Of a stretch of DNA of 64,000 bases, positions 1,402 to 64,000 are shown in pieces. How positions within the stretch are numbered: the stretch's first letter is position 1; every line of letters starts with the position of its first letter. The notes below the pieces were generated by a model, which saw only the letters and a list, made by a program, of their open reading frames with translations, ran no database searches and was not told where the DNA came from. The stretch spans positions 42,989 to 106,988 of the forward strand of contig CASGDZ010000002.1 of assembly GCA_949300385.1 (NCBI GenBank), written 5' to 3'. The stretch comes from an uncultured Christensenella sp. GTDB taxonomy: Bacteria > Bacillota > Clostridia > Christensenellales > UBA1242. The translations under genes were made by a program, and so were the position numbers.

Positions 1402-1518
1402 ATAAAATTAAAAACTTTTTTAAAAATTTTAAAAATTTCACTAAAAATGGTTGACTTTTTTAAAATTATGTAATTTTTAACAACTTTTTTAATTTTTATC
1501 AATAAAAATTATAGAAAG

Positions 1519-1876: not shown

Positions 1877-2782
1877 TTGAAAGTTTTTTGTCTGATTATC
1901 ATAAATATAAGTATGAATTATCTTATATCAAGGTTCGCGTGTATTATTAAGGGTAAAGAAGAGTTAAAGCTAAAACCAATGGCGAAATATTGTTTTGATG
2001 ATATATCGGACGAAACCTACATTGTCTTTTCAGAATTGGGCGAGATAGCGTACGCTATTAACTTTTATTCACTTATTTATTTGAATGCTACAAATAAATA
2101 TGTATTAAAATTTGAATATGGCAAGGACACTTATTTAATTCTAACTCAAACGAGTGAACTTAAACCATTCGTAACAAGTATTAAATATTTATCAACCGAT
2201 GTTATTGTAAGTCTGTCGAGCGAGTTAGATATTTCAATTTCGGGCGAGTGTGTTCTCAATAGAAAGTTATACGATATAAAATATTCACATTTTGAAATTG
2301 AAGGGAATATCTTAATAATTTATTTTACAGGCAAACGAAATTATGTAGTTGTTATAGATAATAAAAAATTAAAGTTTGATTCATACTATGACGAATGTAA
2401 TGTGGAAAAAGATGAAAAATATTTTATGTGTAAATGTTACGATATAATTAATCATGGATCTGTCTGCCACATTAAGGATAAAGAAGTTGAGACTTATCTA
2501 GTATACTTAGATGATTTTGAATTAAAATTAAAGCGCGAATTTGTTGCATGTGTATTCCTTGATTGCGTGCGTGTTAAAAATTACAAATATGCAAATTCTA
2601 TGTTGGATAGTGAAATTGCAAATGACGACGCAAATAATATAGGTAAGTTTTTCCCACAATTCGATAATTATTATATAATAGATAATAATTTAACAGCACT
2701 TATAAATAAAAATACCCTTGCGGGTATTTATAAGTTTGAGATTGAAAATTTATCTATTAGAAACATTGTAGAGATAAATTAA
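1877..2782 (+). CDS. Hypothetical protein (about 270-300 aa, start uncertain)
   Basis: A long ORF with no motif I recognise. Candidate starts are TTG 1877, ATG 1913 and ATG 1979, and none has a clear SD. Confidence 0.45.
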   Translation: MKVFCLIIINISMNYLISRFACIIKGKEELKLKPMAKYCFDDISDETYIVFSELGEIAYAINFYSLIYLNATNKYVLKFEYGKDTYLILTQTSELKPFVTSIKYLSTDVIVSLSSELDISISGECVLNRKLYDIKYSHFEIEGNILIIYFTGKRNYVVVIDNKKLKFDSYYDECNVEKDEKYFMCKCYDIINHGSVCHIKDKEVETYLVYLDDFELKLKREFVACVFLDCVRVKNYKYANSMLDSEIANDDANNIGKFFPQFDNYYIIDNNLTALINKNTLAGIYKFEIENLSIRNIVEIN

Positions 2783-19084: not shown

Positions 19085-19450
19085 TCTCCTTGCATATAAA
19101 AAACCCGCACGCTATTAGGACGAGCGGGTCTCGTGGTACCACCTAAATTCGCTCACAAACTGCGCTTTTCCTCGTTTGCTTGTACACACGGCGCAAACAG
19201 CGGTTTATGCTTGTTTGTTCGCTAACCCCATATCGAAACCAGTTCTCATGGGGACCCAGTGTACTGCGCTTTTCTCGTTTGATAGAATTTAACGCGTTAC
19301 GATTAAAAGAAAAATCAGTTTATAAGCCTTATTACATTTTCACAGTTTTATCTGTCGCATTTCAACAATGCGCAACTCAGATGCTGAAATTCGTGATTTA
19401 CACTGAACATAAGTATCTCTCAATCAACGGATACTCTCCCTTTATGAAAT
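19085..19450 (-). promoter_or_regulatory. T-box riboswitch leader (Phe-specific) controlling pheST
   Basis: The minus strand carries the conserved T-box sequence AATTTAGGTGGTACCACG (19149-19132). It is followed by the terminator ACCCGCTCG...CGTGCGGGT (19129-19103) and a U-run. Stem I-like elements GGGAGAGTA and TTGAGAGA lie near 19440-19410. A GAA-UUUC-A specifier-like context (UUC Phe codon) lies at about 19385-19392. The 5' boundary is uncertain. Confidence 0.85.
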
Positions 19451-19514
19451 GTATATCCTACTGCACACATCGTCATAGTCTTTAATTAAGTTAATGGATT
19501 ATTCCATATATTTT

Positions 19515-43809: not shown

Positions 43810-43830
43810 ATTTACCTTCTTATTTATTAA

Positions 43831-43859
43831 ATTATAATGAAAAATGTTAAATATGTCAA
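43831..43859 (-). promoter_or_regulatory. Consensus sigma-A promoter for cysS (short leader, no T-box)
   Basis: On the minus strand, TTGACA (43859-43854), a 17-nt spacer and TATAAT (43836-43831), then about 21 nt containing GAAGG before the ATG. Confidence 0.65.
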
Positions 43860-44177
43860 CAATATAGGTCGATTAAAATTTTTATAAATAAAATAAAAAA
43901 ATTAAAAAATAATTAATTTTAATTGATTTTTGTTTAATTTTTTATAATTTTTAATAAATTTTATATAATTTTTTAAAATTTTCATTAAAAATATTAATTT
44001 TACAAAAATTTTTTAATTAAAATAAAAATAAACTTTTTGCTAAAATATGTAATTAATTTAGTTATTTAATTTATCAACAACAATTTTTTTATTTATTTAG
44101 GGAAAATCTAAATTCGCAAAATATAAAAAATATTAATTTATATTAAAATATAATTTTAAAATTTATGCGTTATTTAT

Positions 44178-44206
44178 TTGATAAAAATTCAACAATGTGT
44201 TAAACT
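44178..44206 (+). promoter_or_regulatory. Candidate promoter for the giant-lipoprotein / SipW / TasA-like operon
   Basis: TTGATA (44178-44183), a 17-nt spacer and TG-n-TAAACT (-10 at 44201-44206), with SD AAGGGG before the ATG at 44243. Confidence 0.45.
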
Positions 44207-44242
44207 ATTTTTAGACAAGATTAGACATAAAAAGGGGTTTGT

Positions 44243-47200
44243 ATGTCAAAAGTAAAAAATAGGGGAATTTACATTTTAATAATTTTAGCGTTCCTTTCAT
44301 TTTTTGCATTTGGATGTGAGAAGGAGCTTCGCGTTGACGATATTTATTTTGCTGAAGAATCTATAACTTTAGTAGTTGGTGAAAGTTATAAGCCAAACAT
44401 AATTATTCAACCTAGTTATGCGGACAATACAGGATATACGCTTTCTAGTTCGAATGATCAGTACTTATCAGTAAACGGAGATACTATTACTGCCAACAAA
44501 GTGACCGATAGCGCGGTATATTTGCAAGTAACATCAAGCGATAATAATTTAAAAACAGATATCATTCGCGTATATGTAATTGTGCAAACTATAACCTTAG
44601 ATACTCCTAGAAATTTGACATATAACTCAGATAATCAATCGATCAGTTTTAGTGCTGTAGAATATGCGCAATCATATATCCTTAGGGTGAATGGACAAGA
44701 TATAAATATAGGCAATGTGACTAATTATTCACTAGCCGATTTAAGTACACGCATAAACGGAAATGTTTTTGATACAAAATTAAACATACAAGTTAGAGCG
44801 GTTGCTAATACAAACACTTCTGCATATAAGAATTCGGAATTGTCGTCAGCAATCATGTTCTATCAGACAAGTGCCCCTTCAAATGCTGATATCACGAATG
44901 GAGTGTTGTCTTATAGCGGAAACGCAGATAAATACGCTATTTTATTTAATGATGATAATATTCTTTCGACAAGTCTAACGACTATAGATTTAACTTTGGA
45001 CGCAAAATACGCAGGTATGTCAGGCGAACTTAGTGTTGTTGCAATGACAGAAGGTGAAGAGATAGGTGTGCAATATTATAATTCACAACCAACAGAATTA
45101 AATGTGAATGTATTAGATGTTGCTAGTGCGAATGTCCAAGCAGGGGTTTTGAGTTGGAATAATGTAATGTACGCGGGTTCATATAACATTTATATGGATT
45201 CAAAATTGCAAGCAAATGTTCAGGATAATTTCATTTCTATTAGTGATTTTGCAGACTATGGTACAATCGTGAATAATGATAGCGGTTATAATATTACCAT
45301 TGATCCGATTTTATATGAAAATAGCAAAAATATTTTAAGAACTAACGCTAAAAGTGAAGCGCTTATCATAAATAAATTGTCTACACCTATTGTCATAAAT
45401 AATGCAGGATTAATCAGTTGGGACAATATTGAGAATGCGACTCAATATGTCGTTGAGATATCTTATGTTTTAAATGCCGAGACGAAAAAAGAAAGCATGA
45501 CTATTAGCAATAATAGTATAGATATTAGTGCAAATAATTTTCCATCGAACATTGAATATACAATTTCAGTAAAAGCCATAAATACTACAAATTCAAGCAT
45601 ATATTATTTAGATTCTGACTATGCTTCAATTCAAGTATTTAAAGAAGATGAAGCGGACATTTATATTGAAAATTATAAATTATACATAAATTCAACTATA
45701 CAAGATAAATATTTAGTTAAAATTGACGACAATGAGCCAATAACGATAACCGCTGATAGCAATATAACAGAATACGACCTAACAGGCATTGAATTTAATG
45801 TTGGCGAACATTCAATTTCGGTATGCCATTTAGGAGACGAAAATTCATCTAGCAGTAATGCTACGCTAATAACATTTGTACAATTGGGGCTATTAGATAA
45901 TGCTCAAATAGAAAATGGTGTAGCCAGCGCAAGTTCATCACTTCAATTTGAAACATTATTATTTGAAATTTACAATGGGCAATCATCGTTTTATTCGACA
46001 ACAGGATTAAGTCTAAATATAAACACTACTGAGCAAGCGGGTGAAGGATATTTGCCTAGCGGAAATTATAAATTGTATATTTCAGCATTAGGTGACGGAA
46101 GTAAAACATTCTCTAGCAAAGAAAAATCAGAACTTGATTTTGAAGTGTTGGCTACTCCAACTTTTGATTTCGTTAATAAAGATAGTACAACAATCTCTTT
46201 CTCAGAGATAGAGAATGCAAAAAATTATCTACTTTTATTTAACGAGCAACAAATTGAACTAAATACAAATAGTTATGAATTTGATATTTCAGCCGGTCAG
46301 ACTATTGAATTCTTCGTTCAAGCCATAGGAAATGGGTCGAATACATTAAGTTCAAACCTATCTCAAGGACACAAAGTTATTAAATTGAACACTCCTTCGT
46401 TAAGTTTCAACAACACAACAGATGTTATAGAAAAAATAGATAATAATGACGCCGAGTTGGTCAATGGATATTCATTCGTGCAAGTTATTAATGGCATGCT
46501 AACAACCATTGATTACGACTTTAATAGTCCGTATACACAATTTAGCGCGGGAGAAAATAACTTCACATTAATGTTAATAGCGCGCGATGCGGATACCGAT
46601 AATAACATTTCATATTTAAATTCTGACAGCGTAAGTTTAATGATAAATGTGATAAATGGCGAAACAGAGATTTATATAGATTCTCAAAATCGTTTAGTGA
46701 TTAAGTCGCAAGATTTAAATGAACATGCGTTATTGCTTAATATTATTTCTAACGATGAAAGGATTGAACTTGAAGGTAGAGAAGGTACATTATCTAATAA
46801 GAATAAAGATATAAATTTAAATTATACTTTTGATAATGGTGTATATTATGTGGAAATCTTAAATAATGATTATACATTAAAAATCTCTACTTTGTCAGAA
46901 TTTTATGTACAAGTAAAATTGTTAGCAGATGATGAGGGTATGGCAAATAGTACTCTTAGTGAAAGTAAAACAATAGAGTTTGAAAATCCGACTACATTTA
47001 ATGTCGAGCAGTTTGATGATGAGAACATAGCGTTTAGCAATTTAGCAAAAAATTATACTGAATATGCGCTTTTAATTGATGGAAACAAAACTTTGCCCCT
47101 GACTAATGACTCTGTAAGTTTAGATGCAGACGCCGGCGTTATAAAGGTCAAAGTCGCATACATATATGAAAATATTGAAGAAAATACTGAAGTCATTAGC

Positions 47201-50200
47201 GTCGCAGTAATAAGTTTAAATAATTCAAGTAATGCCGAAAATCCTACTATCTCTAAGGTTGGACAGGCAATAAAAATTGCACGAAATCAACTCGTGGATC
47301 TTAACGCCAAAAAGGATAATACACAATCCAACAATTCAATAGAATTATCATTTAATTTATTTGAGACAACATATGCAAAATCATATGTACTTGAAATTTA
47401 TAATAAATCGAATGAAGAAGCAATCAATGTTAGACAATTTACATTTACTGACCAAAATGATACTGATTTAGATGGTGTAATATCGTTATATTTAGATGAT
47501 TATATTTCTTCTAATTTAAATGATACAATGTTAAGTTCTGAAATCTTCGTTAGATTATATGTCAAATCAAATGCAACCGATATAATAGATGGCGAAACGG
47601 TGTATATTTTCAATTCGCCAGCATCTAGTGAATTAAATTATACTTTATTAGATTCGGTTAGCGATATTAAGATTAAAAATGGCGAACTTACATTTAGTCC
47701 TGTCGAAAACGCAGTGGGTTATGATGTCTATAAATTAGACGGCTCAAATTTAGTAAAAATCAATAATAATTTAATTATTGAAAATCATTATTCACTTGCC
47801 GATATGAGCGGGAATATGAAGATTTTCGTACGCGCAGTATCAGATGAAAATTTAATATATTCTAACTCAGATTTGAGTGCTCAGATACAAGTAAATAAAC
47901 TTAATATCCAGTCTGTGAATGTGGAAAATGGGGATTTGGTGTTGAATTTAGATCCTACAACAATCGGTTTGATATCGACGACTGAGGTTGATGCAAACAC
48001 TGACATATCCACATTTAACGGTGTACTTGTTCGAGTTATTAATGGAAATAATATTTACTATTTTACTTCGACGAGTGAAGGGGTTAAAATATTAGATAAT
48101 AAATTTATAATTGAAGCAAGTAAATTATTAAACTATGGTGTAGATAATATTCAGTTAGAGAATTTGAAATTTAATCTTATTACAAATTACATTGAAGAAG
48201 AAACAATCTACTATCTAAATTCAAACGCTGTCAATCTTGGAGTTTATGGATTATTAAGACCTACTAATTTAATTAAAATAGCAGATTCTAGCAATGAGCA
48301 ACTTGAGTACATATCTTGGAAAGAAAGTGAATTAAATCATATGACAATTCAAGATGTAGATACGAATTTAACTGCTGGATATGTATTGAGAGTTAGAGTT
48401 GGGGATAATATATATTATTCAACTGATATCAACTTAAAATATGCAGATAATGACAAGTTCTTAAGTTATGACAATGTCATTACTTCAACATCAATTCCTG
48501 CACCATACGGCTATGATTTAGACGGAGATGGATTAATAAATGATAACGAAAGATTTATAGCAGGAGTCTACTATTTTGCAGTAAAAGCAGTACCTAATTC
48601 AATAGATGGAGTAAATATTGTATCATCGGCCTATTCGGACGAGTTGATTGTCAATATTATGGTTGCACCTTCTCTCACTATTAAAAACGGACAAATAACT
48701 TGGGATCAAGATAACGATGCGACAGGATACATTGTATCAATCTTTGACCAAAATATGGAATTAAATACTACACCGATTTTCACATATACAGCAAGCGAAA
48801 ATTTCTTCGATTTTAGTGGACAAACTTTTGACAGCCTTACAGGGATATATGGTGTAAAAGTACAATCTATTAGTACCAAAAACAATGTGTTAAATAGTCA
48901 AATAAGCGAAGGAATTTATGTATTTAGATCGAATGAAGCCGAGTCAATAGAAGTAGATGACGGCAACCTTATTCTTGAAGCAAATCAATATTTCACAAAT
49001 GCCGAAATAGAATTTGTGGATAATACTACAGGAAGAAAAGAATATATATACTTCAATTATGAAGACATCGCGAATGACAACATAGACGCTTTAAAATCAG
49101 GAGAAGAAAGCGGTTGGTTAGACTACATTGATAATCAAGACGAAATTAAGTCGGTTAAGAAAATCCTTATAAAAATAAATGATAGCAATATCTTAAATAT
49201 AACACAAGGAAGAAGTTACACTATCAATGTTCGTTTAATTGGTAATAGCAATAATGACTTTGGCGTAATAAATTCAAAGACGACTAAAAATATTAGCCAA
49301 ATAAATGTCGTCAAACTTAGTCAAAGTGCATCTAATGTTGAATTAGTAGAAGTTAATAAGGGTGTATTTAGTTATAATTATTTAGAGAACTATGACGGAA
49401 TTAATCTAAATTTTAATTTTAACAATTCAACAGGCATTTCGCCTTTCTTTGAACAGGTAAAGATTTATCGTGTTTTGTTAGAAACTTCTAGCGCAAAACA
49501 TTATATATATGCTATAGATTTTAATAATTTTAATGAATATTATAGTCTATTAGATGAATCCGATTATTTTATCTTCAGTGATCAAGATAATCTTGGCGGA
49601 TTATATGCGTATGTAAAATACAATTACACGCGTACTGATGGTCAGAGTGGAAGTCTGTATTTTAATGTATATAAAAATAATGAAATTAATTTACGCGATT
49701 ATGACTATTTATACTATTACGATATAATTACAGATGAGTCAAATAGCGAAATCATATATACTTCTAGTGGAGAACGCGCTTATATTGACTTAGCATCGGG
49801 TGGTTCGTTTGTAATTTCTATAAACTTGCTTGGTGGAGATAGCAACATTGAGAGCAATGAAAGTAGTATAATCTCGCATATAGCATATATAAATTCAAAC
49901 GCAATACAGACTAATACATTTGTACGTTATAGCGACAACAATTTGACAGCATACAATGGTCTAATTAAATTCAATGATTTGATGCCGGAAGATGATCTTG
50001 GAGCAGTGATAGACTATCCTATTTATCGTTTAGTTGTGACTCCATTAAATGAAGTTGAAAGTAAAATTATATATGTTTACTACACTTCAGAAGAAGATGC
50101 TAGACAAGTAGTTAATGATCAAAATGCAATATATGTAAAGGCAGAATTTGTTAAGACACTTCCTGATAGCGTACTATTTGATATGTCAAAATATTTTACA

Positions 50201-53050
50201 GCAGGCACATATCAAGTAACTATTCAGACACTTGCAGGATTAGGTAACGACTCACAAAATTCAGATTATTTATTAAATGCGCGCCTACCTATCAATAGTA
50301 CAGTATTTAAGAAAATAACCGACACAACATTCAGAGCAAATTTAGGTGTATTGAATTTTGATATGGCGTATGTCTATGACAATAATGTTATAAACTATGT
50401 TTATAATTATGAAATCACATTAAGTAATGGACAAGAAGAATATGTGTTTGAAATAAATGAAAATACTTCAGGTATTACAATAGATAACAATGCACACACC
50501 ATTTCATATGAACTTCCAGATTCAATACAAATCGGAGAAGAGATTATAACAATTGACAATTCGGCAAATTATACAATTAAAATAAGAGCACTTGCTTTCA
50601 ATAGCCAAGATAGAATAAATGGTACATATGCTCAATCAGATAATGAAGATATAGTGTTATCGTTTACTCGTTCATCAGGTGTGGAAAATGTTAGAATAGA
50701 AGACGGCGTATTAAAATTTGTCGTTATAGATAGAGATAATTTCAGTCAGGCACGAATTAAATTGACATACCTAGATTCTACAAGTAATGAATGTATTGTA
50801 CTCATCACAACACGCGCTAATGAATATATTGAGGACGGAATTTATCAATACCACTATTATGAATTCAGTTATGCAGTTGGTTCGACTTATCCTATTCAAG
50901 GCGGATTGGGCAACATGCAACTCGATTCAGGAATTGATTATAATGTATCAGTTCAAGTATTAGGAAAGAATGGAGAAACTGCTATTTTGAATAGCAATTA
51001 TAGTCAATCAATTATAGCAACACGACTTGCACGAGTTGATACGGCAGATATAAAATCACAGGACGGAATTCTAACTTGGAATGTTGTTGAAAATTGTAAA
51101 GAATATATTGTTACATTGTCAGGAGAAGACACATACACATTTAAGGTTAATACAAATTCAATTGATTTCGAAACAACTTTAGATGAGCAAGGCAGATACC
51201 TTCCAAGCGGAGATTATAAAATATCTATTCGCTCATTGGGCGATGAAATACTTAATTCGCGCGCGTCTAATAAAACGGAAGAATTTACACGATTAGCACA
51301 AGTAAGTAATATTAGAATCGATCCAAATAATTTAAATTCGGTTATTTGGGACGAAGTAAGCAAAGCAACGCGATATGAGGTCATATTCACATATGGAGAA
51401 AATGAGCCTATAACACAATATGTACAAACTAATTCATGTATTGCGCCTAGTGGAATGTCTGGTGCATTTACTATAAAAGTTAGAGCATTATCACAAGGCG
51501 AAGGAAAGACGCTTAACGGAACATATGGTTCGTTCACAAGTAGCACTGATCAGCCACAAGCGGTTGGTGCAGTTCAATGGGATAGCACAAATTATTTCTA
51601 TTATTTTGCTACAGCAAGCGATTTCTCGTCAGGCGACAGAATATTAGTAAGTTACGACTTTAGACCATACATTAAGACGCTTAATGGATATACGATTTCT
51701 CAGGAAAGTGAACAAGTGGAAGTTTATATCAATTACGGGCAGTCGGACGCGCAAATAATGATAGGCGATAGTCTATACTATTTCTATCAACCTACTCGTA
51801 TGGGACTTTATACGAGTGTAGTTGTACAAATAGAGCGAACGGGCAGTCTATATTCAAGTGCGAGTCGCGGTGATGATCTTGATTTCAACATTTTTGCTTA
51901 CGGCAGTGGTACAAGTCTAGACCCATATGGTTTAGGAACGGATACGCATTTGTTAAATATAAAATCGAAACCTAACGCAATATACGAATTGTATAGTTCA
52001 ATTAGTTTGCAATCAGTTGATATTGATTCACGCGTAAATGAAAATGGTGCTATAGTATGTGACGAATTTAGTGGTACAATCAATGGTGGCGGTTATTCAA
52101 TTATTGGAATTGGGGACATAAGTCTAAATTCACGACAAACATTTGGTTTATTCAAGAAATTAAATGGTGCTACTATTGAAAATCTTATGATTGGTTCGCA
52201 GGATAGCAATATAAATATTACAAATTCATTTGCAAATAATGTAGGAGCAGTGATACAATTAGGATTGTTAGCAAGTTATAGTGAGAATTCTAATATTAGC
52301 GAAGTTAACATTTATAATATGAACTTTATAATTAATAGTTCAACAACTATTAGTGGCGCACAAATATATGTTGGCGGTATGTTCGCCCAAGCGGTTAATA
52401 CAACGATAAGTCAATCGTCAATTCAAACAAACATTGAATTTAATGCAACTATTAGCGCTACATCAACTATTTATCTTGCGGGCGCAGTAGCAGAAGCGAA
52501 AACAACAGATATCAGCACAATTGATGTAACCTTTACACTCACACAAAGTGTATCGAGCAACCTATTCACATATGTGGGCGGAATAGTAGGATTCATAAAC
52601 GGAGGAACTGATTCAAATTACGCGATTAATGAATCTAACGCAAATGTCACAATGTCAAATGTATATACCGTATACTTCGGCGGTATAGCGGGTGTGGCTA
52701 GAAATATTGATATTACAGCAAGCGAGACTAGTGGCAGGTTTGCGAATACTAATCTCACTGGCGGCAAGTATATTGGCGGTATTGTAGGTATGGGAACAAG
52801 TGTTAGAATCACAGAGTCAGATGTATACTTAGTATTTGAATTCAATATCGCAAATACGAGCGCTCTATATATCGGAGCACTTGCGGGTTACTTAAATACA
52901 ATCAACAACATAGAGTGCAGTTATGATTTATGCAATATTGGGTATGATTTCATTAATGGCGCAACAACTTATACAACTAATAATATGAATATCGGTGTTT
53001 ATGGCTATCGTTCAAACGATGTCATAACTGGTACATGTGAAAGAATTTAA
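44243..53050 (+). CDS. Giant surface lipoprotein (2935 aa): Big_2 domain, long Fn3-like repeat array, C-terminal GLUG-motif beta-helix
   Basis: It has a lipobox (FFAFGC) and an N-terminal Big_2-like domain (ITLVVGESYKPNIIIQPSYADNTGYTLSSSNDQYLSVNG). Many modules carry the W..V.NA..Y.V signature (LSWNNVMYAGSYNIYM, ISWDNIENATQYVVEI, ITWDQDNDATGYIVSI, LTWNVVENCKEYIVTL, VIWDEVSKATRYEVIF). The C-terminus has FSGTINGGGYSI, FGLFKKLNGATIENL and repeated GG[IM][VAF]G turns (VGGIVGFI, FGGIAGVA, IGGIVGMG). Confidence 0.8.
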   Translation: MSKVKNRGIYILIILAFLSFFAFGCEKELRVDDIYFAEESITLVVGESYKPNIIIQPSYADNTGYTLSSSNDQYLSVNGDTITANKVTDSAVYLQVTSSDNNLKTDIIRVYVIVQTITLDTPRNLTYNSDNQSISFSAVEYAQSYILRVNGQDINIGNVTNYSLADLSTRINGNVFDTKLNIQVRAVANTNTSAYKNSELSSAIMFYQTSAPSNADITNGVLSYSGNADKYAILFNDDNILSTSLTTIDLTLDAKYAGMSGELSVVAMTEGEEIGVQYYNSQPTELNVNVLDVASANVQAGVLSWNNVMYAGSYNIYMDSKLQANVQDNFISISDFADYGTIVNNDSGYNITIDPILYENSKNILRTNAKSEALIINKLSTPIVINNAGLISWDNIENATQYVVEISYVLNAETKKESMTISNNSIDISANNFPSNIEYTISVKAINTTNSSIYYLDSDYASIQVFKEDEADIYIENYKLYINSTIQDKYLVKIDDNEPITITADSNITEYDLTGIEFNVGEHSISVCHLGDENSSSSNATLITFVQLGLLDNAQIENGVASASSSLQFETLLFEIYNGQSSFYSTTGLSLNINTTEQAGEGYLPSGNYKLYISALGDGSKTFSSKEKSELDFEVLATPTFDFVNKDSTTISFSEIENAKNYLLLFNEQQIELNTNSYEFDISAGQTIEFFVQAIGNGSNTLSSNLSQGHKVIKLNTPSLSFNNTTDVIEKIDNNDAELVNGYSFVQVINGMLTTIDYDFNSPYTQFSAGENNFTLMLIARDADTDNNISYLNSDSVSLMINVINGETEIYIDSQNRLVIKSQDLNEHALLLNIISNDERIELEGREGTLSNKNKDINLNYTFDNGVYYVEILNNDYTLKISTLSEFYVQVKLLADDEGMANSTLSESKTIEFENPTTFNVEQFDDENIAFSNLAKNYTEYALLIDGNKTLPLTNDSVSLDADAGVIKVKVAYIYENIEENTEVISVAVISLNNSSNAENPTISKVGQAIKIARNQLVDLNAKKDNTQSNNSIELSFNLFETTYAKSYVLEIYNKSNEEAINVRQFTFTDQNDTDLDGVISLYLDDYISSNLNDTMLSSEIFVRLYVKSNATDIIDGETVYIFNSPASSELNYTLLDSVSDIKIKNGELTFSPVENAVGYDVYKLDGSNLVKINNNLIIENHYSLADMSGNMKIFVRAVSDENLIYSNSDLSAQIQVNKLNIQSVNVENGDLVLNLDPTTIGLISTTEVDANTDISTFNGVLVRVINGNNIYYFTSTSEGVKILDNKFIIEASKLLNYGVDNIQLENLKFNLITNYIEEETIYYLNSNAVNLGVYGLLRPTNLIKIADSSNEQLEYISWKESELNHMTIQDVDTNLTAGYVLRVRVGDNIYYSTDINLKYADNDKFLSYDNVITSTSIPAPYGYDLDGDGLINDNERFIAGVYYFAVKAVPNSIDGVNIVSSAYSDELIVNIMVAPSLTIKNGQITWDQDNDATGYIVSIFDQNMELNTTPIFTYTASENFFDFSGQTFDSLTGIYGVKVQSISTKNNVLNSQISEGIYVFRSNEAESIEVDDGNLILEANQYFTNAEIEFVDNTTGRKEYIYFNYEDIANDNIDALKSGEESGWLDYIDNQDEIKSVKKILIKINDSNILNITQGRSYTINVRLIGNSNNDFGVINSKTTKNISQINVVKLSQSASNVELVEVNKGVFSYNYLENYDGINLNFNFNNSTGISPFFEQVKIYRVLLETSSAKHYIYAIDFNNFNEYYSLLDESDYFIFSDQDNLGGLYAYVKYNYTRTDGQSGSLYFNVYKNNEINLRDYDYLYYYDIITDESNSEIIYTSSGERAYIDLASGGSFVISINLLGGDSNIESNESSIISHIAYINSNAIQTNTFVRYSDNNLTAYNGLIKFNDLMPEDDLGAVIDYPIYRLVVTPLNEVESKIIYVYYTSEEDARQVVNDQNAIYVKAEFVKTLPDSVLFDMSKYFTAGTYQVTIQTLAGLGNDSQNSDYLLNARLPINSTVFKKITDTTFRANLGVLNFDMAYVYDNNVINYVYNYEITLSNGQEEYVFEINENTSGITIDNNAHTISYELPDSIQIGEEIITIDNSANYTIKIRALAFNSQDRINGTYAQSDNEDIVLSFTRSSGVENVRIEDGVLKFVVIDRDNFSQARIKLTYLDSTSNECIVLITTRANEYIEDGIYQYHYYEFSYAVGSTYPIQGGLGNMQLDSGIDYNVSVQVLGKNGETAILNSNYSQSIIATRLARVDTADIKSQDGILTWNVVENCKEYIVTLSGEDTYTFKVNTNSIDFETTLDEQGRYLPSGDYKISIRSLGDEILNSRASNKTEEFTRLAQVSNIRIDPNNLNSVIWDEVSKATRYEVIFTYGENEPITQYVQTNSCIAPSGMSGAFTIKVRALSQGEGKTLNGTYGSFTSSTDQPQAVGAVQWDSTNYFYYFATASDFSSGDRILVSYDFRPYIKTLNGYTISQESEQVEVYINYGQSDAQIMIGDSLYYFYQPTRMGLYTSVVVQIERTGSLYSSASRGDDLDFNIFAYGSGTSLDPYGLGTDTHLLNIKSKPNAIYELYSSISLQSVDIDSRVNENGAIVCDEFSGTINGGGYSIIGIGDISLNSRQTFGLFKKLNGATIENLMIGSQDSNINITNSFANNVGAVIQLGLLASYSENSNISEVNIYNMNFIINSSTTISGAQIYVGGMFAQAVNTTISQSSIQTNIEFNATISATSTIYLAGAVAEAKTTDISTIDVTFTLTQSVSSNLFTYVGGIVGFINGGTDSNYAINESNANVTMSNVYTVYFGGIAGVARNIDITASETSGRFANTNLTGGKYIGGIVGMGTSVRITESDVYLVFEFNIANTSALYIGALAGYLNTINNIECSYDLCNIGYDFINGATTYTTNNMNIGVYGYRSNDVITGTCERI

Positions 53051-58931: not shown

Positions 58932-59832
58932 TATAACTAAAAATTTACTGGCAGAAATCGCAGGACTTCACGAAATACCAAATGGCGCCATGTCGTTTAG
59001 ACTTAATGGAAAGGGAGAACTAGTTCGTTCTACTGCGCATATTGAAATATCTAAAAAATCCGACCTTCCAGGAATAGATGTTATCATACATTCAAGTTGT
59101 AAGAATGAGGCTTGCCATATACCTGTTGTTGTTAATGCAGACGATTTACACGATTTAGTCTATAACGACTTTTATGTCGAGCCGGGCGCAATTGTTACCA
59201 TTGTCGCAGGTTGTGGTGTTCACTCGAATGGGTCGGGAAGTCATGATGGTATTCATACATTTCACATTGGAGAAAATGCTTCTGTTACATACGTAGAAAA
59301 TCATTTGGCGATAGGCGAAGGTAAAAATAAAACAATGAATCCTAAGACCATTATTAAACTTGGTTGCGGGGCTACTATGACCATGAATACTAATCAAATT
59401 GGAGGTGTTGATTATTCTAATCGTGAAACTATAGCCACATTGCAAGAGGGCGCAACTCTCAATGTCAATGAGAAAATTTTAACGGATAGATTCAATGTTG
59501 CAAAAACAAATTTTAAAGTAGATTTGCGCGGGAAAGAAAGTAAATGCAACATAGTATCGAGAAGTGTTGCGCGCGGTGAGAGTGAACAAGTCTTTAAATC
59601 GAATTTAATAGGCAGAGATGATGTGTTCGGCCATGTAGAATGTGATGGAATAGTGCTAGAAAATGCACGGATAGATTCTGTACCTAAAGTAAGTGCACGC
59701 TCTAACCTTGCTAGTTTATCGCACGAAGCCGCAATAGGAAAAATTGCAAACGATCAAATTATAAAACTTATGACATTAGGACTAACTGAAAAGCAGGCGG
59801 AAGATAAAATAATTGAAGGATTTTTAAAATAA
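58918..59832 (+). CDS. SufB/SufD-family Fe-S assembly scaffold protein
   Basis: It has SufBD beta-helix-like sequence (FHIGENASVTYVENH ... SRSVARGESEQVFKSNL ... LSHEAAIGKI). I set the start at MKLDNIT, after GGAGGA. It overlaps the end of sufC. Confidence 0.7.
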   Translation: MKLDNITKNLLAEIAGLHEIPNGAMSFRLNGKGELVRSTAHIEISKKSDLPGIDVIIHSSCKNEACHIPVVVNADDLHDLVYNDFYVEPGAIVTIVAGCGVHSNGSGSHDGIHTFHIGENASVTYVENHLAIGEGKNKTMNPKTIIKLGCGATMTMNTNQIGGVDYSNRETIATLQEGATLNVNEKILTDRFNVAKTNFKVDLRGKESKCNIVSRSVARGESEQVFKSNLIGRDDVFGHVECDGIVLENARIDSVPKVSARSNLASLSHEAAIGKIANDQIIKLMTLGLTEKQAEDKIIEGFLK

Positions 59833-59841
59833 TAAAAAGTA

Positions 59842-59870
59842 TTGATTTTTTCTACTAACTAAATTATAAT
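59842..59870 (+). promoter_or_regulatory. Promoter placed for a leaderless small-gene transcript
   Basis: TTGATT (59842-59847), a 17-nt spacer, TATAAT (59865-59870), 7 nt, then ATG (59878). Confidence 0.45.
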
Positions 59871-59877
59871 AGGGCAC

Positions 59878-60114
59878 ATGATAGAGATAAAAGACATTGA
59901 AGGGTTTAAAAAGAATGCTAATAAAATCATTGAATATTTGGACAATGATCAAAATTTTTATGCGATAAGGAAGAAAGAACCTGATTTAATAAAATGGTTT
60001 GAAAGGTATGGAACATTAATAGGTTTTTATAATAAAGAATTAAATGAACTATTAGTTCAAATCTATTTAAAACGAAAAGTATTGAATGAAAAAGAGAAAT
60101 CTCTAGAAACTTAA
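59878..60114 (+). CDS. Hypothetical small protein (78 aa)
   Basis: An intact ORF with no motif I recognise. A hairpin terminator follows at 60207-60232. Confidence 0.4.
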   Translation: MIEIKDIEGFKKNANKIIEYLDNDQNFYAIRKKEPDLIKWFERYGTLIGFYNKELNELLVQIYLKRKVLNEKEKSLET

Positions 60115-60206
60115 ATTATAAATATTAGGTAATGATATAATTAAAATATGCAAACTAAAAATTATATTGTTTAGTGAAAATATTTAAGATATAAGTTAAA
60201 ATCAAC

Positions 60207-60232
60207 AAATATTCGCGAGTGCGAATATTTTT
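60207..60232 (+). terminator. Intrinsic terminator
   Basis: aaatattcgc / gcgaatattt stem with a GAGT loop, followed by a T-run. Confidence 0.55.
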
Positions 60233-60247
60233 CATATAGCATATTAG

Positions 60248-60276
60248 TTGACAAAATTTAGATTTTATGCAATAAT
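60248..60276 (+). promoter_or_regulatory. Sigma-A-type promoter for the gatCAB-aspS leader
   Basis: TTGACA (60248-60253), a 17-nt spacer and TG-n-AATAAT (-10 at 60271-60276). Confidence 0.55.
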
Positions 60277-60282
60277 AAAATC

Positions 60283-60321
60283 ATGTTGATATTGAATAAT
60301 AATGACAATAATTTAGATTAA
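60283..60321 (+). CDS. Candidate Asn/Asp-rich leader peptide MLILNNNDNNLD
   Basis: The ORF reads ATG TTG ATA TTG AAT AAT AAT GAC AAT AAT TTA GAT TAA. The ATG begins 7 nt after the -10 hexamer, which is the leaderless geometry. The stop codon abuts the alternative hairpins. Confidence 0.4.
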   Translation: MLILNNNDNNLD

Positions 60322-60331
60322 CACAAACTTT

Positions 60332-60383
60332 GTGTGTACCTTTTGCCATGATTTTCAAGGTGCACACCTTGAATTTTCTTTTT
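60332..60383 (+). terminator. Attenuator: antiterminator and terminator alternative hairpins upstream of gatC
   Basis: The antiterminator pairs 60332-60342 (gtgtgtacctt) with 60357-60367 (aaggtgcacac) over 11 bp including one G-U. The terminator pairs 60354-60361 (ttcaaggt) with 60366-60373 (accttgaa), has a 4-nt loop, and is followed by TTTTCTTTTT (60374-60383). The gatC SD comes next. Confidence 0.65.
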
Positions 60384-60394
60384 AAGGAGACATT

Positions 60395-60673
60395 ATGATA
60401 TCAAACGAAGAATTTAAACATTTAGCAGAACTTTCAAAACTCGAGTTTAGTGATGAAGAGCGCGATAAATTTATTAAAGATTTTAATTCGGTATTAGACT
60501 TCGCATCTCAGATAAACAGCGCAAAAGTTGAAAATAAATCTTTTATCAAATCTATTCCGCTTAAAGATTTGCGCGAAGATGTGGCGCAGTCAGGACTAAG
60601 TCAAGATGAAGTTGTTTCTAACGCGCCATTAAAAAAGAAAGGGTGCTTCGTAGTGCCTAGAATAATGGATTAG
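60395..60673 (+). CDS. gatC: Asp-tRNA(Asn)/Glu-tRNA(Gln) amidotransferase subunit C
   Basis: 92 aa with typical GatC sequence (FKHLAELSKLEFSDEERDKF ... LREDV). It is the first gene of gatCAB. Confidence 0.9.
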   Translation: MISNEEFKHLAELSKLEFSDEERDKFIKDFNSVLDFASQINSAKVENKSFIKSIPLKDLREDVAQSGLSQDEVVSNAPLKKKGCFVVPRIMD

Positions 60674-60680
60674 GTGACAT

Positions 60681-62096
60681 ATGGTAGAATTAGGTATAAA
60701 AGATATTAGAGAAAAAATACAAAAGGGTGAGATAACAAGCGAACAAATTACTCGTGAATATATCGAAAAAATTAAAAATAGTAAAATTAACGCCGTTTTA
60801 GAAATATTTTCAGACGCCATCGAACAGGCAAAGGAAATGGACGAACGAATCAAACAAGGATTTAATGGTTTACTAGCAGGTGTACCTATAATTATAAAAG
60901 ACAACATTTTAGTAAAGGGCAAACATGCTAGCGCAGGCTCATTATTCTTAAAAGATTATATCGCAGAGTACACTTCTACTGTGGCTGATAAATTAATTAA
61001 GGCGGGCGCAATAATATTGGCGCGTGCTAATATGGACGAATTCGCCATGGGTGGAAGCACAGAGACAAGTTATTATGGCAAGACTTTAAATCCACATGAT
61101 CACACAAGAGTGCCTGGCGGTTCTTCAGGCGGAAGTGCGGCCGCTGTAGCGGAAAATCTATGCGCAGGTGCACTCGGTACAGATACAGGAGGTTCAATTC
61201 GTCAACCTAGCGCATATTGTGGAACTATAGGTATGAAACCTACTTATGGAAGAGTTTCGCGTTATGGAGTAATAGCATTTGCGAGTTCATTAGATCAAGT
61301 TGGGCCTATTACTAAGAGTGTTGAAGATAATGCAATTTTGCTACAAGTTTTGGCGGGAGTTGATGAGCATGACGAAACTTGTGAAAAGCGCGAAGTTGAA
61401 GATTATACAACTTATTTAGGTAAAGACATTCGCGGTTTGAAAGTAGGCGTGATATCTTTTGTTGAAGATATTGTTCGTGGACTTGATGTTGAGAAAAATT
61501 ATAATGAGTTTAAAGACTTTTTAGTTAAAAATGGTGCCGAAATAGTACCTATTGATATTAAAAATTTGGAGTTGGTTCTCCCTGTCTATTATATAATTGC
61601 GCCAGCGGAAGCAACTAGCAATTTAGCGAGATTTGATGGTGTAAAATATTCAAGACGCTCAAAAGATGCAAAGAATTTGGAAGAAATCTATACAAAATCG
61701 CGCACAGAAGGATTTGGCAACGAAGTAAAGCGTAGAATAATGTTGGGAAATTATGTACTAAGTAGCGGATATTTTGATGCTTACTACAATAAGGCACGCG
61801 CTATACAGGCCGACCTTAGGGAAGAATATTTGCGCGCCTTTGATAATTGCGATGTTATTATTATGCCTACAGCAAAAGGGGAAGCATATAAATTGGGCGA
61901 GAAATCTAATCCTGTAGACGCATATAAGGAAGATATTTTCACCGTAAGTGCAAATATTGTTGGCGTGCCGTGTATGTCAGTACCTTTTGGGGTCGGTAAA
62001 GATGGTTTGCCTATAGGTATGCAAATTATTGCACCGCATTTTGAGGAAGGCAGATTATATCGTGTGGCTGACTTCATTGAAAGGAGGGCTAAATAA
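60681..62096 (+). CDS. gatA: Asp-tRNA(Asn)/Glu-tRNA(Gln) amidotransferase subunit A
   Basis: It has the amidase signature (GGSSGGSAAAVA, GTDTGGSIRQPS). Confidence 0.95.
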   Translation: MVELGIKDIREKIQKGEITSEQITREYIEKIKNSKINAVLEIFSDAIEQAKEMDERIKQGFNGLLAGVPIIIKDNILVKGKHASAGSLFLKDYIAEYTSTVADKLIKAGAIILARANMDEFAMGGSTETSYYGKTLNPHDHTRVPGGSSGGSAAAVAENLCAGALGTDTGGSIRQPSAYCGTIGMKPTYGRVSRYGVIAFASSLDQVGPITKSVEDNAILLQVLAGVDEHDETCEKREVEDYTTYLGKDIRGLKVGVISFVEDIVRGLDVEKNYNEFKDFLVKNGAEIVPIDIKNLELVLPVYYIIAPAEATSNLARFDGVKYSRRSKDAKNLEEIYTKSRTEGFGNEVKRRIMLGNYVLSSGYFDAYYNKARAIQADLREEYLRAFDNCDVIIMPTAKGEAYKLGEKSNPVDAYKEDIFTVSANIVGVPCMSVPFGVGKDGLPIGMQIIAPHFEEGRLYRVADFIERRAK

Positions 62097-63523
62097 TGGA
62101 ATACGATGTAGTTATAGGATTAGAGGTCCACGCTGAGTTAAAAACAAATAGTAAATGCTTCTGCGCATGTAAAAATGAAGCGGGAGATGAACCGAATACA
62201 AATTGTTGCCCAGTGTGTATTGGACTACCTGGAGCATTGCCTGTTCTTAATAAATTTGCTGTTGAACAGACTATCCGTGCGGGATTAGCATTAGGTTTTG
62301 AAATTAATCGAACAGCAATATTTGAAAGAAAGAATTACTTTTATCCTGACCTTGCTAAAGCATATCAAATTTCACAACTTGTTAAACCAATTTGTGTAAA
62401 CGGAAGTTTGCGTGTGGGAGATAAGGATATACCTATAAATAGAATTCATTTAGAAGAAGACGCAGGTAAACTTGTCCATAGCGCGGACGGGAATACGCTT
62501 GTAGATTATAATCGTGGTGGTGTACCACTTATCGAACTTGTTACAGACGCGCTAAAAGAACCACACATAGAAAGCGCAGATGAAGCAATAGAATTTCTAG
62601 AAAAATTGCGCCAAATTTATATCTATACAGGTGTTGCAGATTGCATTATTGAGAAAGGACAAATGCGCGCCGATGTCAATGTCTCATTGAAACCAAAGGG
62701 TAGTACAAAATACGGCACTAAGGTAGAGATGAAAAACATTATGGGATTCAAATCTGTTTATCGCGCTATTCAGTATGAAATTGAACGCCAGCGCGACATA
62801 TTAGATGACGGCGGAGTTATCGAGCAGGAAACTAGAAAATGGGACGACGACAAAGGTATTAATTTTACACTGCGAACAAAGGAAAATAGTCAAGATTATA
62901 GATATTTCCCTGATCCAGACTTGTTAGCGGTTAGTATAGATGAAGAAAAAATTAATGAGATTAAGAAATCTATGCCACCTCTTCCTAGTGAACTAAAATC
63001 AAAATATATGAATGAATACTTGCTTAGCGAATACGATTCAGATGTGTTGTTGCAATTTAAACATGTGAGCGACTTCTTCAATGAATGTGTAAAGATGTAT
63101 AATCAACCAAAGACAGTATGCAATTGGATAACAACAGAGATTATGGCGAGAATAAAGACAGAAACGGGCGCGGGTCCAATATTGATATCTAAAGATAATT
63201 TAGTATGGTTGATGAAAAATGTTGATAACAAGAAGATAAATCGTCTTAGTGCAAAAGATGTCCTTTCTAAGATTTGGGGGACAGAATTGAGTGCTGAGAG
63301 CGAAGCAAAGCGCTTAAATTTGATTATAGACATAGACACAAATGCACTCGATGAAATTGTAAATAAAGTAGTAGAGCAAAATCCGAGCGTTGTGGCACAA
63401 TTCAAGGCAGAAAATGACCCTAAGATATTAAACTATTTAGTAGGACAAGTTATGAAAGAAACGCGTGGGAAAGCCAATGCTGGCGATGTTATGTCTAAAA
63501 TTAAAGAGATAGTAAACTCTTAA
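62096..63523 (+). CDS. gatB: Asp-tRNA(Asn)/Glu-tRNA(Gln) amidotransferase subunit B
   Basis: It has the canonical GatB N-terminus (YDVVIGLEVHAELKTNSKCFC) and a C-terminal YqeY-like tail. Its ATG overlaps the gatA stop (TAATG). Confidence 0.95.
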   Translation: MEYDVVIGLEVHAELKTNSKCFCACKNEAGDEPNTNCCPVCIGLPGALPVLNKFAVEQTIRAGLALGFEINRTAIFERKNYFYPDLAKAYQISQLVKPICVNGSLRVGDKDIPINRIHLEEDAGKLVHSADGNTLVDYNRGGVPLIELVTDALKEPHIESADEAIEFLEKLRQIYIYTGVADCIIEKGQMRADVNVSLKPKGSTKYGTKVEMKNIMGFKSVYRAIQYEIERQRDILDDGGVIEQETRKWDDDKGINFTLRTKENSQDYRYFPDPDLLAVSIDEEKINEIKKSMPPLPSELKSKYMNEYLLSEYDSDVLLQFKHVSDFFNECVKMYNQPKTVCNWITTEIMARIKTETGAGPILISKDNLVWLMKNVDNKKINRLSAKDVLSKIWGTELSAESEAKRLNLIIDIDTNALDEIVNKVVEQNPSVVAQFKAENDPKILNYLVGQVMKETRGKANAGDVMSKIKEIVNS

Positions 63524-63617
63524 AAATAAATTTATTAAATATATAAAAAATATATCAAAAACCTTTAAATTTAAAATAAAAAATAATATAATAGAAAATA
63601 ATTGTTAGGAGAAAATT

Positions 63618-64000
63618 ATGTATAGAACAATGACTTGCGGACAAGTCGATGAGAATATGGTAGGTAAGACAATTGAACTTGCTGGTTGGGTCAACACAAT
63701 GCGTGACCATGGCGGAATTGTGTTTATTGATTTGCGTGATAAATATGGATTAGTGCAATTGACCACACATGACGATAGTTTGCTTACAAGCCTTACGCGC
63801 GAGAGCGTAATATCAGTTAAGGGAAAAGTTGTTATGCGTGATGAGTATAACTTCAACCCTAAGATGAAGTCAGGTAAAATTGAAGTTGAGATTGAAGAAT
63901 TAAAAGTATTGTCAAAGGCGCGCAACATCTTGCCGTTTGAAGTAGAAGACAGCATGAAGGTGAGCGAAGAATTGCGCTTAAAATATAGATATCTTGACTT
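63618..64000 (+). CDS. aspS: Aspartate--tRNA ligase, 5' part (runs off the window)
   Basis: This gene is not in the ORF track because no stop codon falls in the window. My manual translation is MYRTMTCGQVDENMVGKTIELAGWVNTMRDHGGIVFIDLRDKYGLVQ..., a typical AspRS OB-fold N-terminus. SD AGGAGA lies upstream. Confidence 0.9.
   Translation, partial: MYRTMTCGQVDENMVGKTIELAGWVNTMRDHGGIVFIDLRDKYGLVQLTTHDDSLLTSLTRESVISVKGKVVMRDEYNFNPKMKSGKIEVEIEELKVLSKARNILPFEVEDSMKVSEELRLKYRYLD

Follow-up and report, generated by a model that had tools for sequence, protein, structure and literature searches.

Upstream of the gatCAB-aspS operon of an uncultured Christensenella sp., we found a short leader that is likely to be a ribosome-mediated transcription attenuator, one that would be translated and would sense the supply of Asn-tRNA(Asn) and, secondarily, that of Asp-tRNA(Asp). 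The DNA analyzed was a window of 64,000 nt (GCA_949300385.1, contig CASGDZ010000002.1, positions 42,989 to 106,988, forward strand) with a GC content of 33%. An earlier sequence-only reading of this DNA had proposed an Asn-codon attenuator at this site. Direct sequence reading and folding recovered every element that it had listed, i.e., the promoter, the ORF, the terminator, the antiterminator, and the genes, where it had placed them (Table 1), and its interpretation gained support from relatives, with an Asn/Asp-rich ORF kept in about 20 distinct leaders. We infer from sequence features where transcription starts, that the ORF is translated, and which way the operon responds.

TABLE 1 Features of the leader region and the operon behind it (positions in the 64,000-nt window)
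Feature	Position	Strand	Description
Terminator of the upstream 78-aa gene	60207..60235	+	10-bp inverted repeat AAATATTCGC/GCGAATATTT, then a T-run
Sigma-70-type promoter	60248..60276	+	TTGACA 60248-60253, 17-nt spacer, TG 60268-69, AATAAT 60271-76 (extended -10, TGc)
Leader ORF, MLILNNNDNNLD and stop	60283..60321	+	ATG TTG ATA TTG AAT AAT AAT GAC AAT AAT TTA GAT TAA; 12 codons; no Shine-Dalgarno (SD) sequence
Predicted regulatory codons	60295..60318	+	AAT x3, GAC, AAT x2, (TTA), GAT; ends at the last sense codon
P1 hairpin, candidate anti-antiterminator or pause hairpin	60321..60335	+	ACACAA-ACU-UUGUGU, 60321-26 with 60330-35; -3.1 kcal/mol
Antiterminator	60332..60367	+	60332-60342 with 60357-60367; 11 bp, one of them G-U; -13.8 kcal/mol
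Intrinsic terminator	60354..60383	+	60354-61 with 60366-73, 8 bp, loop GCAC, -8.1 kcal/mol, then UUUUCUUUUU
gatC including SD	60384..60673	+	SD AAGGAG 60384-89, ATG 60395; P0001 matches Pfam GatC (PF02686)
gatA	60681-62096	+	Pfam Amidase in syntenic relatives
gatB	62096-63523	+	Pfam GatB_N and GatB_Yqey in syntenic relatives
aspS, 5' part (bacterial-type AspRS)	63619..64000	+	Gene runs past the window end

Gene context, promoter, and leader ORF

The leader forms an independent transcription unit, since the upstream 78-aa gene ends in its own terminator (60207-60230). The same upstream terminator element is also present in a relative, L081. The promoter has 11 matches in 12 positions as well as the extended TG and was the best promoter-like site in a 5-kb scan (59000 to 64000). 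The ATG of the leader ORF is the 7th base past the -10, which is the predicted transcript start.

The leader ORF has five Asn and two Asp codons among its 12, so that Asn/Asp make up 7 of the 11 post-initiator codons. Among the 1,078 ATG mini-ORFs of 6 to 35 codons on both strands of the window, it is the only one with at least five Asn in seven codons, and a single other mini-ORF reaches four in seven. The sequence-only reading had cautioned that the ORF could be fortuitous given how common AAT is in this DNA, a caveat that is countered by this count and by the conservation of the ORF in relatives.

The SD of gatC lies directly 3' of the U-run of the terminator, and all four downstream genes (gatC, gatA, gatB, and aspS) belong to the pathway of the aminoacyl-tRNA that would be sensed. 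The aspS product in relatives has 576 aa, with the domains tRNA_anti-codon, tRNA-synt_2, and GAD. We found no terminator between gatB and aspS, and a weak promoter-like site is present ahead of aspS at 63564-63592. Pfam scans of about 30 window ORFs identified pheST and cysS as the only translation genes, with no asnS, asnA/B, or glnS, a result that says little given a sample of 64 kb.

Conservation of the leader ORF in four classes of leaders

Relatives were collected by a GatA scan of one-genome-per-species contigs, by a GatC protein search with contig look-ups, and by a metagenome scan with a GatC alignment. Most GatC hits from the last of these were distant (about 33% identity) and lacked leaders, and only L097, L098, and L100 were useful. 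Altogether, we obtained 23 leader entries with about 20 distinct peptides, and in each of the 23 entries a short ORF with an Asn run (4 to 9 Asn in the approximately 20 distinct homologous leaders), often accompanied by Asp, sits between a promoter and an antiterminator/terminator pair. The enrichment in codons for the putative regulatory amino acid is thus kept in relatives, and the element recurs in dozens of contigs from different samples (e.g., the BRZ_* and ERZ286* assemblies), being shared by many uncultured Clostridia of the gut. The operons behind these leaders are gatCAB-aspS, dtd-gatCAB-aspS, or aspS-gatCAB.

By RNA sequence, the leaders split into four classes, between which the hairpins differ while the Asn run, its frame, and the start and stop signals stay. 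The sequence-only reading had named relatives that keep the hairpins and lose the Asn-rich ORF as evidence that would speak against it. We found the opposite, namely, the ORF being kept where the hairpins are entirely different. Type A, the class of the window's leader (GatC 60 to 80% identical), comprises six distinct peptides, all with N/D-rich ends (NNLD, NNID, NNDN, or NNNI); those of the relatives are MLIINDNDNNID, MKIMANDNFNNDN, MKIKANNNNNNDN, MKIVANNNINNDN, and MIILANDNNNNI. The closest genome in the species collection, L001 (CALVTO01; GatA 71% identical), has the leader peptide MHIQIILNNTNHNCACK and an antiterminator of its own, with 13 bp starting 2 nt past the stop codon. In a direct reading, the antiterminators of type A and L001 were found to differ in a G-C pair that is replaced by U-A and in a 2-bp insertion, matched between the two arms. 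Type B has nine distinct peptides (e.g., MFFINNNNNNNLNHI) and includes Candidatus Onthoplasma (Christensenellaceae), with one of its leaders preceding dtd-gatCAB-aspS. Type C has four distinct peptides, of which MLMLINNNNNNNLNTLFIMGSFCIVD (L012) and MFSFVTVNNNNNNNNNTLNLMGSFCVVD (L016) are found upstream of an archaeal-type aspS followed by gatCAB, MFRFNNNNNNDNNLSAF (L178) is found directly 5' of gatC, and MFRVMNNNFNNNNLNANNLGFIFVVEKF (L098a) is found upstream of a type B leader that is followed by gatC.

The start signals of these ORFs are credible from sequence geometry, either by an SD or by proximity to the -10. All 13 type B and C leaders have an SD (GGA/GGAG) 5 to 10 nt 5' of the ATG, whereas the type A leaders and L001 have none and instead have their ATG 6 to 8 nt past the -10. 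Among the type A promoters, the -35 is invariant, and the -10 is TGcAATAAT in 9 of 10 leaders, the exception being L087 (GCA_947630405.1), which has TATAAT without the TG. On balance, we favor a transcript that starts at or adjoining A60283, with the ORF being read from a leaderless mRNA, because the ATG at 6 to 8 nt past the -10 and the lack of an SD are found in six distinct type A leaders as well as in L001. The frame is always the Asn frame, and homologous ORFs differ by AAT/AAC, GAT/GAC, or Asn/Asp exchanges. The kept frame, the SD or -10 proximity, and the synonymous or Asn/Asp variation therefore fit selection on translation rather than on an RNA motif.

A few relatives depart from this pattern. 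L100 has lost the stop codon, and its ORF extends across the antiterminator arm, which still fits an attenuator model. L177, a single short read-assembly contig, has a type A RNA with an Asn frame that lacks an ATG because an A-run is two bases shorter. A post-stop hairpin in L177 was considered as a compensatory change and dropped, as the alignment register contradicts it. In L007, gatC is preceded by a promoter and a terminator but by no Asn ORF. In the AT-rich relatives outside the clade (L031, L017, and L014; 28 to 33% GC), no Asn-rich ORF was found before gatC.

The sequence-only reading had suggested aligning gatC upstream regions for conservation of the Asn run and for covariation in the hairpins. 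The Asn run proved to be conserved, but covariation was weak, with one or two compensatory pairs per class. This weakness in types A and B reflects helices that are nearly invariant within a class, and our case does not rest on covariation. The helices themselves are well kept, with 93 to 96% of alignment cells pairing, compared to 11 to 57% when the partner strand was slid by 1 to 3 columns. Common to all classes is a G-rich arm that ends in CCUUUUG or a variant of it (UUCAUUUUG and UUCUUUUUG in type C), so the four classes may be diverged homologues rather than independent inventions.

Alternative hairpins and the position of the ribosome

The terminator and the antiterminator of the window's leader are mutually exclusive. 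Minimum-free-energy folding of the leader yields the antiterminator (z = -2.1), and so does an unbiased RNAalifold consensus fold of 10 type A leaders, in which the antiterminator shows A-U/G-U and G-C/U-A variation. The intrinsic terminator, located 3' of the leader ORF and 5' of gatC, the first structural gene, is conserved, with 96% of the cells of its stem being paired across type A; the stem is followed by TTTTCTTTTT at 60374-83. With 8 bp, it is a modest terminator.

The sequence-only reading did not include the conserved P1 hairpin. The first 4 nt of the arm that forms the antiterminator also belong to the 3' strand of P1. Across type A, its stem is kept (94% of cells paired) and its loop varies in length and sequence (ACU, GCU, AAACA, AAUCA, AGC, UAUCU, and UUU). 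A further 5' hairpin, joining the start and the end of the ORF, was set aside, since it is kept only in the window and L081.

We folded each leader while barring from pairing the bases that a ribosome would cover. Among L001 and the type B and C leaders (14 leaders), the terminator probability was 0.90 to 1.00 with the ribosome at the stop codon and 0.00 to 0.64 with the ribosome stalled in the middle of the run. The switch logic is unambiguous in these leaders because the antiterminator arm begins 1 to 3 nt past the stop codon or the ORF crosses the arm. In the naked type C RNA, the (AAY)n run pairs with a UUGUUGUUG stretch adjoining the antiterminator arm, which is the 1:2 pairing of segments known from classical attenuators. 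The conserved ORF end of type B, AAC CAC AUU, copies the 5' arm of the terminator and can pair with the 3' arm, lengthening the antiterminator.

The geometry of type A is different, with the antiterminator arm starting 13 to 15 nt past the first stop base in all variants. A standard ribosome footprint, as known from toeprinting and ribosome profiling, reaches about 11 to 12 nt beyond the first A-site base. The sequence-only reading had assumed that a ribosome at the stop codon occludes 60332-36, which probably does not agree with such a footprint, as it would end at about 60330-31, short of these bases. At equilibrium, the antiterminator prevailed in the window's leader for all ribosome states tested with footprints reaching as far as stop+14, and the fold flipped to the terminator only when pairing was excluded through stop+15, where three masked bases suffice. 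The antiterminator (-13.8 kcal/mol) wins this equilibrium over P1 plus the terminator (-11.2 kcal/mol), so that either kinetics or a wider exclusion zone must account for the off state of the window's leader. This step, in which the antiterminator would be blocked, is the weakest part of the model.

P1 is probably the missing anti-antiterminator. In L087, L091, L179, and L084, P1 plus the terminator was favored or balanced when no ribosome was nearby. Masking of the last 3 to 4 codons switched L087 and L084 from P1 plus the terminator to the antiterminator, whereas the same masking shifted L091 and L179 only partly, with the terminator still being favored. A ribosome stalled on the first Asn codons (60295-60303) would leave P1 uncovered, and the N/D-rich ends of all type A peptides fit the need for a ribosome on the last 3 to 4 codons.

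Proposed mechanism and rival explanations

AspRS charges tRNA-Asp and, if nondiscriminating (ND-AspRS), also charges tRNA-Asn with Asp; GatCAB converts the resulting Asp-tRNA(Asn) to Asn-tRNA(Asn), and EF-Tu discriminates against the mischarged intermediate. The operon encodes exactly the enzymes concerned, AspRS and GatCAB. We propose that transcription begins at or next to A60283 and that the 12-codon ORF is read from a leaderless mRNA. When charged tRNA is ample, the ribosome would complete the ORF and then leave or sit at the stop codon. P1 (60321-35), which would form first and may also act as a pause hairpin before CCUUUUG, or occlusion by the ribosome, or both, would block the arm 60332-42 from pairing, the terminator (60354-73) would form, and RNA polymerase would halt near 60383. 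When Asn-tRNA(Asn) is short, the ribosome would linger near the end of the ORF, on its Asn/Asp codons, and cover the 5' strand of P1, the 11-bp antiterminator would form, and the polymerase would continue into gatC, gatA, gatB, and probably aspS.

Since EF-Tu rejects Asp-tRNA(Asn), a lack of Asp, of AspRS, or of GatCAB could each cause such a shortage and leave the A site empty at Asn codons. With Asp or AspRS in short supply, the A site would be empty at Asp codons as well. The Asp codons, which the sequence-only reading treated as an alternative to the five Asn codons, are part of the predicted signal.

A rival to this specificity is that the leader, though translated and in control of termination, gauges general translation capacity or transcription-translation coupling instead of Asn/Asp-tRNA. 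Any slowing of a ribosome on the ORF would give the same structural effect, a leaderless start would make ribosome loading sensitive to ribosome availability, and the default fold of the window's leader is the antiterminator. However, the concentration of Asn and Asp in the post-initiator codons (7 of 11), the runs of 7 to 9 Asn in relatives, and the identity of the regulated genes, which are exactly those of the Asn-tRNA pathway, all point to a specific signal, as does the AAC specifier of the T-boxes found on the same operon in relatives. We consider a general reporter unlikely. Also quite unlikely is a reading in which another factor (a protein, a small molecule, or a tRNA that binds the RNA directly) drives the hairpins as an attenuator or riboswitch-like element, with the Asn ORF being a by-product of AT-rich DNA. 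AAT is indeed the commonest kind of triplet in the window (4.4% of positions), the helices are highly conserved within classes, and terminator-type leaders are kept in L007 and L177, where no Asn ORF is usable. Against this stand the rarity of such an ORF among the window's mini-ORFs and its persistence over four classes with unrelated hairpin sequences, in which the ATG, the frame, the position of the stop codon, and the SD or -10 proximity are kept and the variation is synonymous or Asn/Asp.

A search with Rfam 15, at the gathering threshold on the whole window and at an E value of ≤10 on the leader, matched no relevant family (His_leader, Trp_leader, Leu_leader, Thr_leader, etc.). In particular, 60100-60500 gave no T-box match even at an E value of ≤10 and had no Stem I, specifier loop, or T-box sequence, while the same search does detect the T-boxes of the window's pheST, L004, and L014. 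A T-box was therefore rejected for the window's leader, which, at about 100 nt, is also too short to be one. That the mini-ORF is a functional micropeptide, or that promoter, ORF, and a leaky terminator are juxtaposed by chance with no regulatory role, is very unlikely; short ORFs are abundant, but nothing specific favors either version, the peptides are of low complexity and differ in length and sequence outside the Asn run, and the arrangement was found again in dozens of contigs from different samples. We thus return to the Asn/Asp-responsive attenuator as the preferred reading.

Relation to T-boxes and known attenuators

The aspS-gatCAB operon is a known target of tRNA-Asn sensing, as shown by the Asn T-boxes of two relatives and of Clostridium acetobutylicum. 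In L004 and L014, Rfam T-boxes (140 and 150 bits) precede aspS-gatCAB, and their specifier is AAC, an Asn codon. The C. acetobutylicum T-box, which the sequence-only reading had mentioned, is real; it is the tRNA-Asn T-box (NT-box) of Saad 2012 (JBC) and 2013 (PNAS), as cited in PMC4206432. The attenuator proposed here would share with these Asn T-boxes the operon, the signal of uncharged tRNA-Asn, and the output by an intrinsic terminator/antiterminator, but its sensor would be a ribosome that translates about 40 nt of coding RNA, in place of a tRNA-binding RNA of about 220 nt. In related genomes, the predicted leader peptide takes the place of the T-box on the same operon.

Classical attenuators (trpL, hisL, leuL, thrL, pheL, and ilvL in Proteobacteria; trp, leu, ilv, and cys in Actinobacteria) likewise combine an ORF rich in cognate codons with alternative hairpins, and type A shares their three-helix 1:2 / 2:3 / 3:4 layout. 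The leaders described here differ in amino acid (Asn plus Asp), in target, which is a set of genes for tRNA-dependent transamidation together with AspRS and not for the biosynthesis of a free amino acid, in host, an uncultured Clostridia lineage, and in their probably leaderless start, and they have no sequence or Rfam relationship to the classical ones. In E. coli, the aminoacyl-tRNA synthetase operon pheST is under the control of a leader peptide, pheM, that is rich in cognate codons. The likeness to pheST extends to the control of a synthetase operon by such a peptide, but pheM senses the product of a direct charging enzyme, whereas the species sensed here would be made in two steps by the regulated enzymes.

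To our knowledge, leader-peptide attenuation has not been described for asparagine or for the GatCAB transamidation pathway. The sequence-only reading, too, was aware of no leader-peptide control of gatCAB, and our full-text literature search found neither this nor an Asn leader peptide. The novel parts would be the amino-acid specificity, the target pathway, the unusual lineage, and probably the leaderless start, while the mechanism itself is classical ribosome-mediated attenuation. Put more broadly and more tentatively, an uncultured Christensenellales-like clade may have given up the Asn T-box on its transamidation operon for a family of Asn/Asp leader peptides, which in one branch would be read from leaderless mRNAs. 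Since Asp-tRNA(Asn) is rejected by EF-Tu, a stalled ribosome would then serve as a gauge of the flux through ND-AspRS and GatCAB themselves.

If true, this would be a direct autoregulatory loop on an indirect aminoacylation pathway, and the first leaderless ribosome-mediated transcription attenuator in Bacillota as well as the first with Asn specificity. The mechanism is a textbook one, yet it is considered rare in Firmicutes, where T-boxes do the job, and one operon would have two sensors, a T-box or a leader peptide, in related genomes. At about 100 nt, the leader would be a compact natural sensor for the supply of Asn-tRNA(Asn), with one branch coupling leaderless initiation to transcription termination, and would offer a handle on how the synthesis of Asn on tRNA is regulated in organisms using that route. 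Annotators should be warned that such mini-ORFs upstream of aminoacyl-tRNA synthetase-type operons are likely to be regulatory.

Mycobacteria provide a parallel for the leaderless start, with leaderless polycysteine short ORFs that attenuate operon genes in response to Cys (bioRxiv 10.1101/834739). As in our type A leaders, the mRNA starts at the AUG of an ORF rich in codons for one amino acid, but the mycobacterial ORFs are found in Actinobacteria and concern Cys and sulfur genes. We know of no description of these ORFs with a canonical antiterminator/intrinsic-terminator pair.

His leader peptides have been found 5' of a hisS paralogue/hisZ in Bacilli (Naville and Gautheret 2010, PMC2965389), and swaps between T-boxes and leader peptides were noted earlier, with leader peptides being regarded as rare in Firmicutes (PMC2965389). 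The Bacilli His leaders resemble our case as Firmicutes attenuators that replace a T-box before a tRNA synthetase-type gene, but the amino acid, the genes, and the lineage differ, and the Bacilli ORFs are led by an SD. The organism of our window appears to own both devices, T-box and leader peptide, as its pheST is preceded by a T-box (Rfam).

Variation among the gatCAB-aspS leaders

The Asn-rich leaders of the relatives (loci denoted by L and a number) do not always stand alone ahead of the genes they probably control. A single gatC in L098 is preceded by both a type C and a type B leader ORF, each with a separate terminator. In L012 and L016, which carry a type C Asn leader before archaeal-type aspS and then gatCAB, a conserved second small ORF may represent a further attenuator in series with the Asn leader; within it lies the hairpin CGCCC-UUUU-GGGCG, with a U-rich stretch after it. 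Type B loci have a spacer of 100 to 190 nt between the attenuator and gatC, and the second promoter-like site in this spacer (e.g., TTGACA-17-TATATAAT in L095) suggests that the regulated promoter is followed by a constitutive one. The type B leader of L093 probably also controls dtd, encoding D-aminoacyl-tRNA deacylase, along with gatCAB-aspS.

Features of the window and of related loci
Sequence	Position	Strand	Feature	Context
L098	18-104 and 257-313		Tandem Asn-rich leader ORFs, type C and type B	gatC at 417
L012	~2289-2345		Second small ORF, SD-led, MEIFKFQINALLGEVIVF	Between Asn-leader terminator and archaeal-type aspS
L016	~2280-2336		Second small ORF, SD-led, MKFSRYKINALLGEMSLI	Between Asn-leader terminator and archaeal-type aspS
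L095	~2895-2960		Second promoter-like site	Between attenuator terminator and gatC
L182	~1440-1480		Second promoter-like site	Between attenuator terminator and gatC
L002, L003			Second promoter-like site	Between attenuator terminator and gatC
L093	2397-2450		Type B Asn leader	dtd at 2544
L007	3569-3690		Strong promoter and intrinsic terminator	Before gatC
L177	13-160		Type A leader RNA, Asn frame without ATG	
Window	19113-19485	-	T-box leader, specifier UUC	Upstream of pheS-pheT
Window	43810-44242		Extremely AT-rich region, ~430 nt	Upstream of cysS (- strand)
Window	Starts 44243 (region 44243-53050)	+	2935-aa ORF	

Neither an Asn-rich ORF nor an Rfam match was found in the listed segment ahead of gatC in L007 (GatA 57% identical). 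L177 belongs to the window's class, type A, and its Asn frame lacks an ATG because its A-run is 2 nt shorter; the frame with the ATG encodes MNCSKHQ*. Either the low-coverage contig is misassembled here or the leader has decayed.

In the window itself, the leader ORF is predicted to fold back on itself, its 3′ end pairing with its 5′ half so that the UG of the AUG is also paired (60284-60323; about -4.8 kcal/mol), a pairing found also in L081 and absent from the other type A leaders. Such a fold could restrict leaderless initiation to a co-transcriptional time window.

Other loci in the window

The pheS-pheT T-box scores only 57 bits against an Rfam gathering score of 93, owing to a 159-nt insertion, and was therefore missed when the window was scanned at the gathering threshold. 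No T-box was found in the cysS upstream region. Several ORFs following the 2935-aa ORF had no Pfam matches in syntenic relatives; the 2935-aa ORF has a homologue in one relative with a weak match to Big_2.
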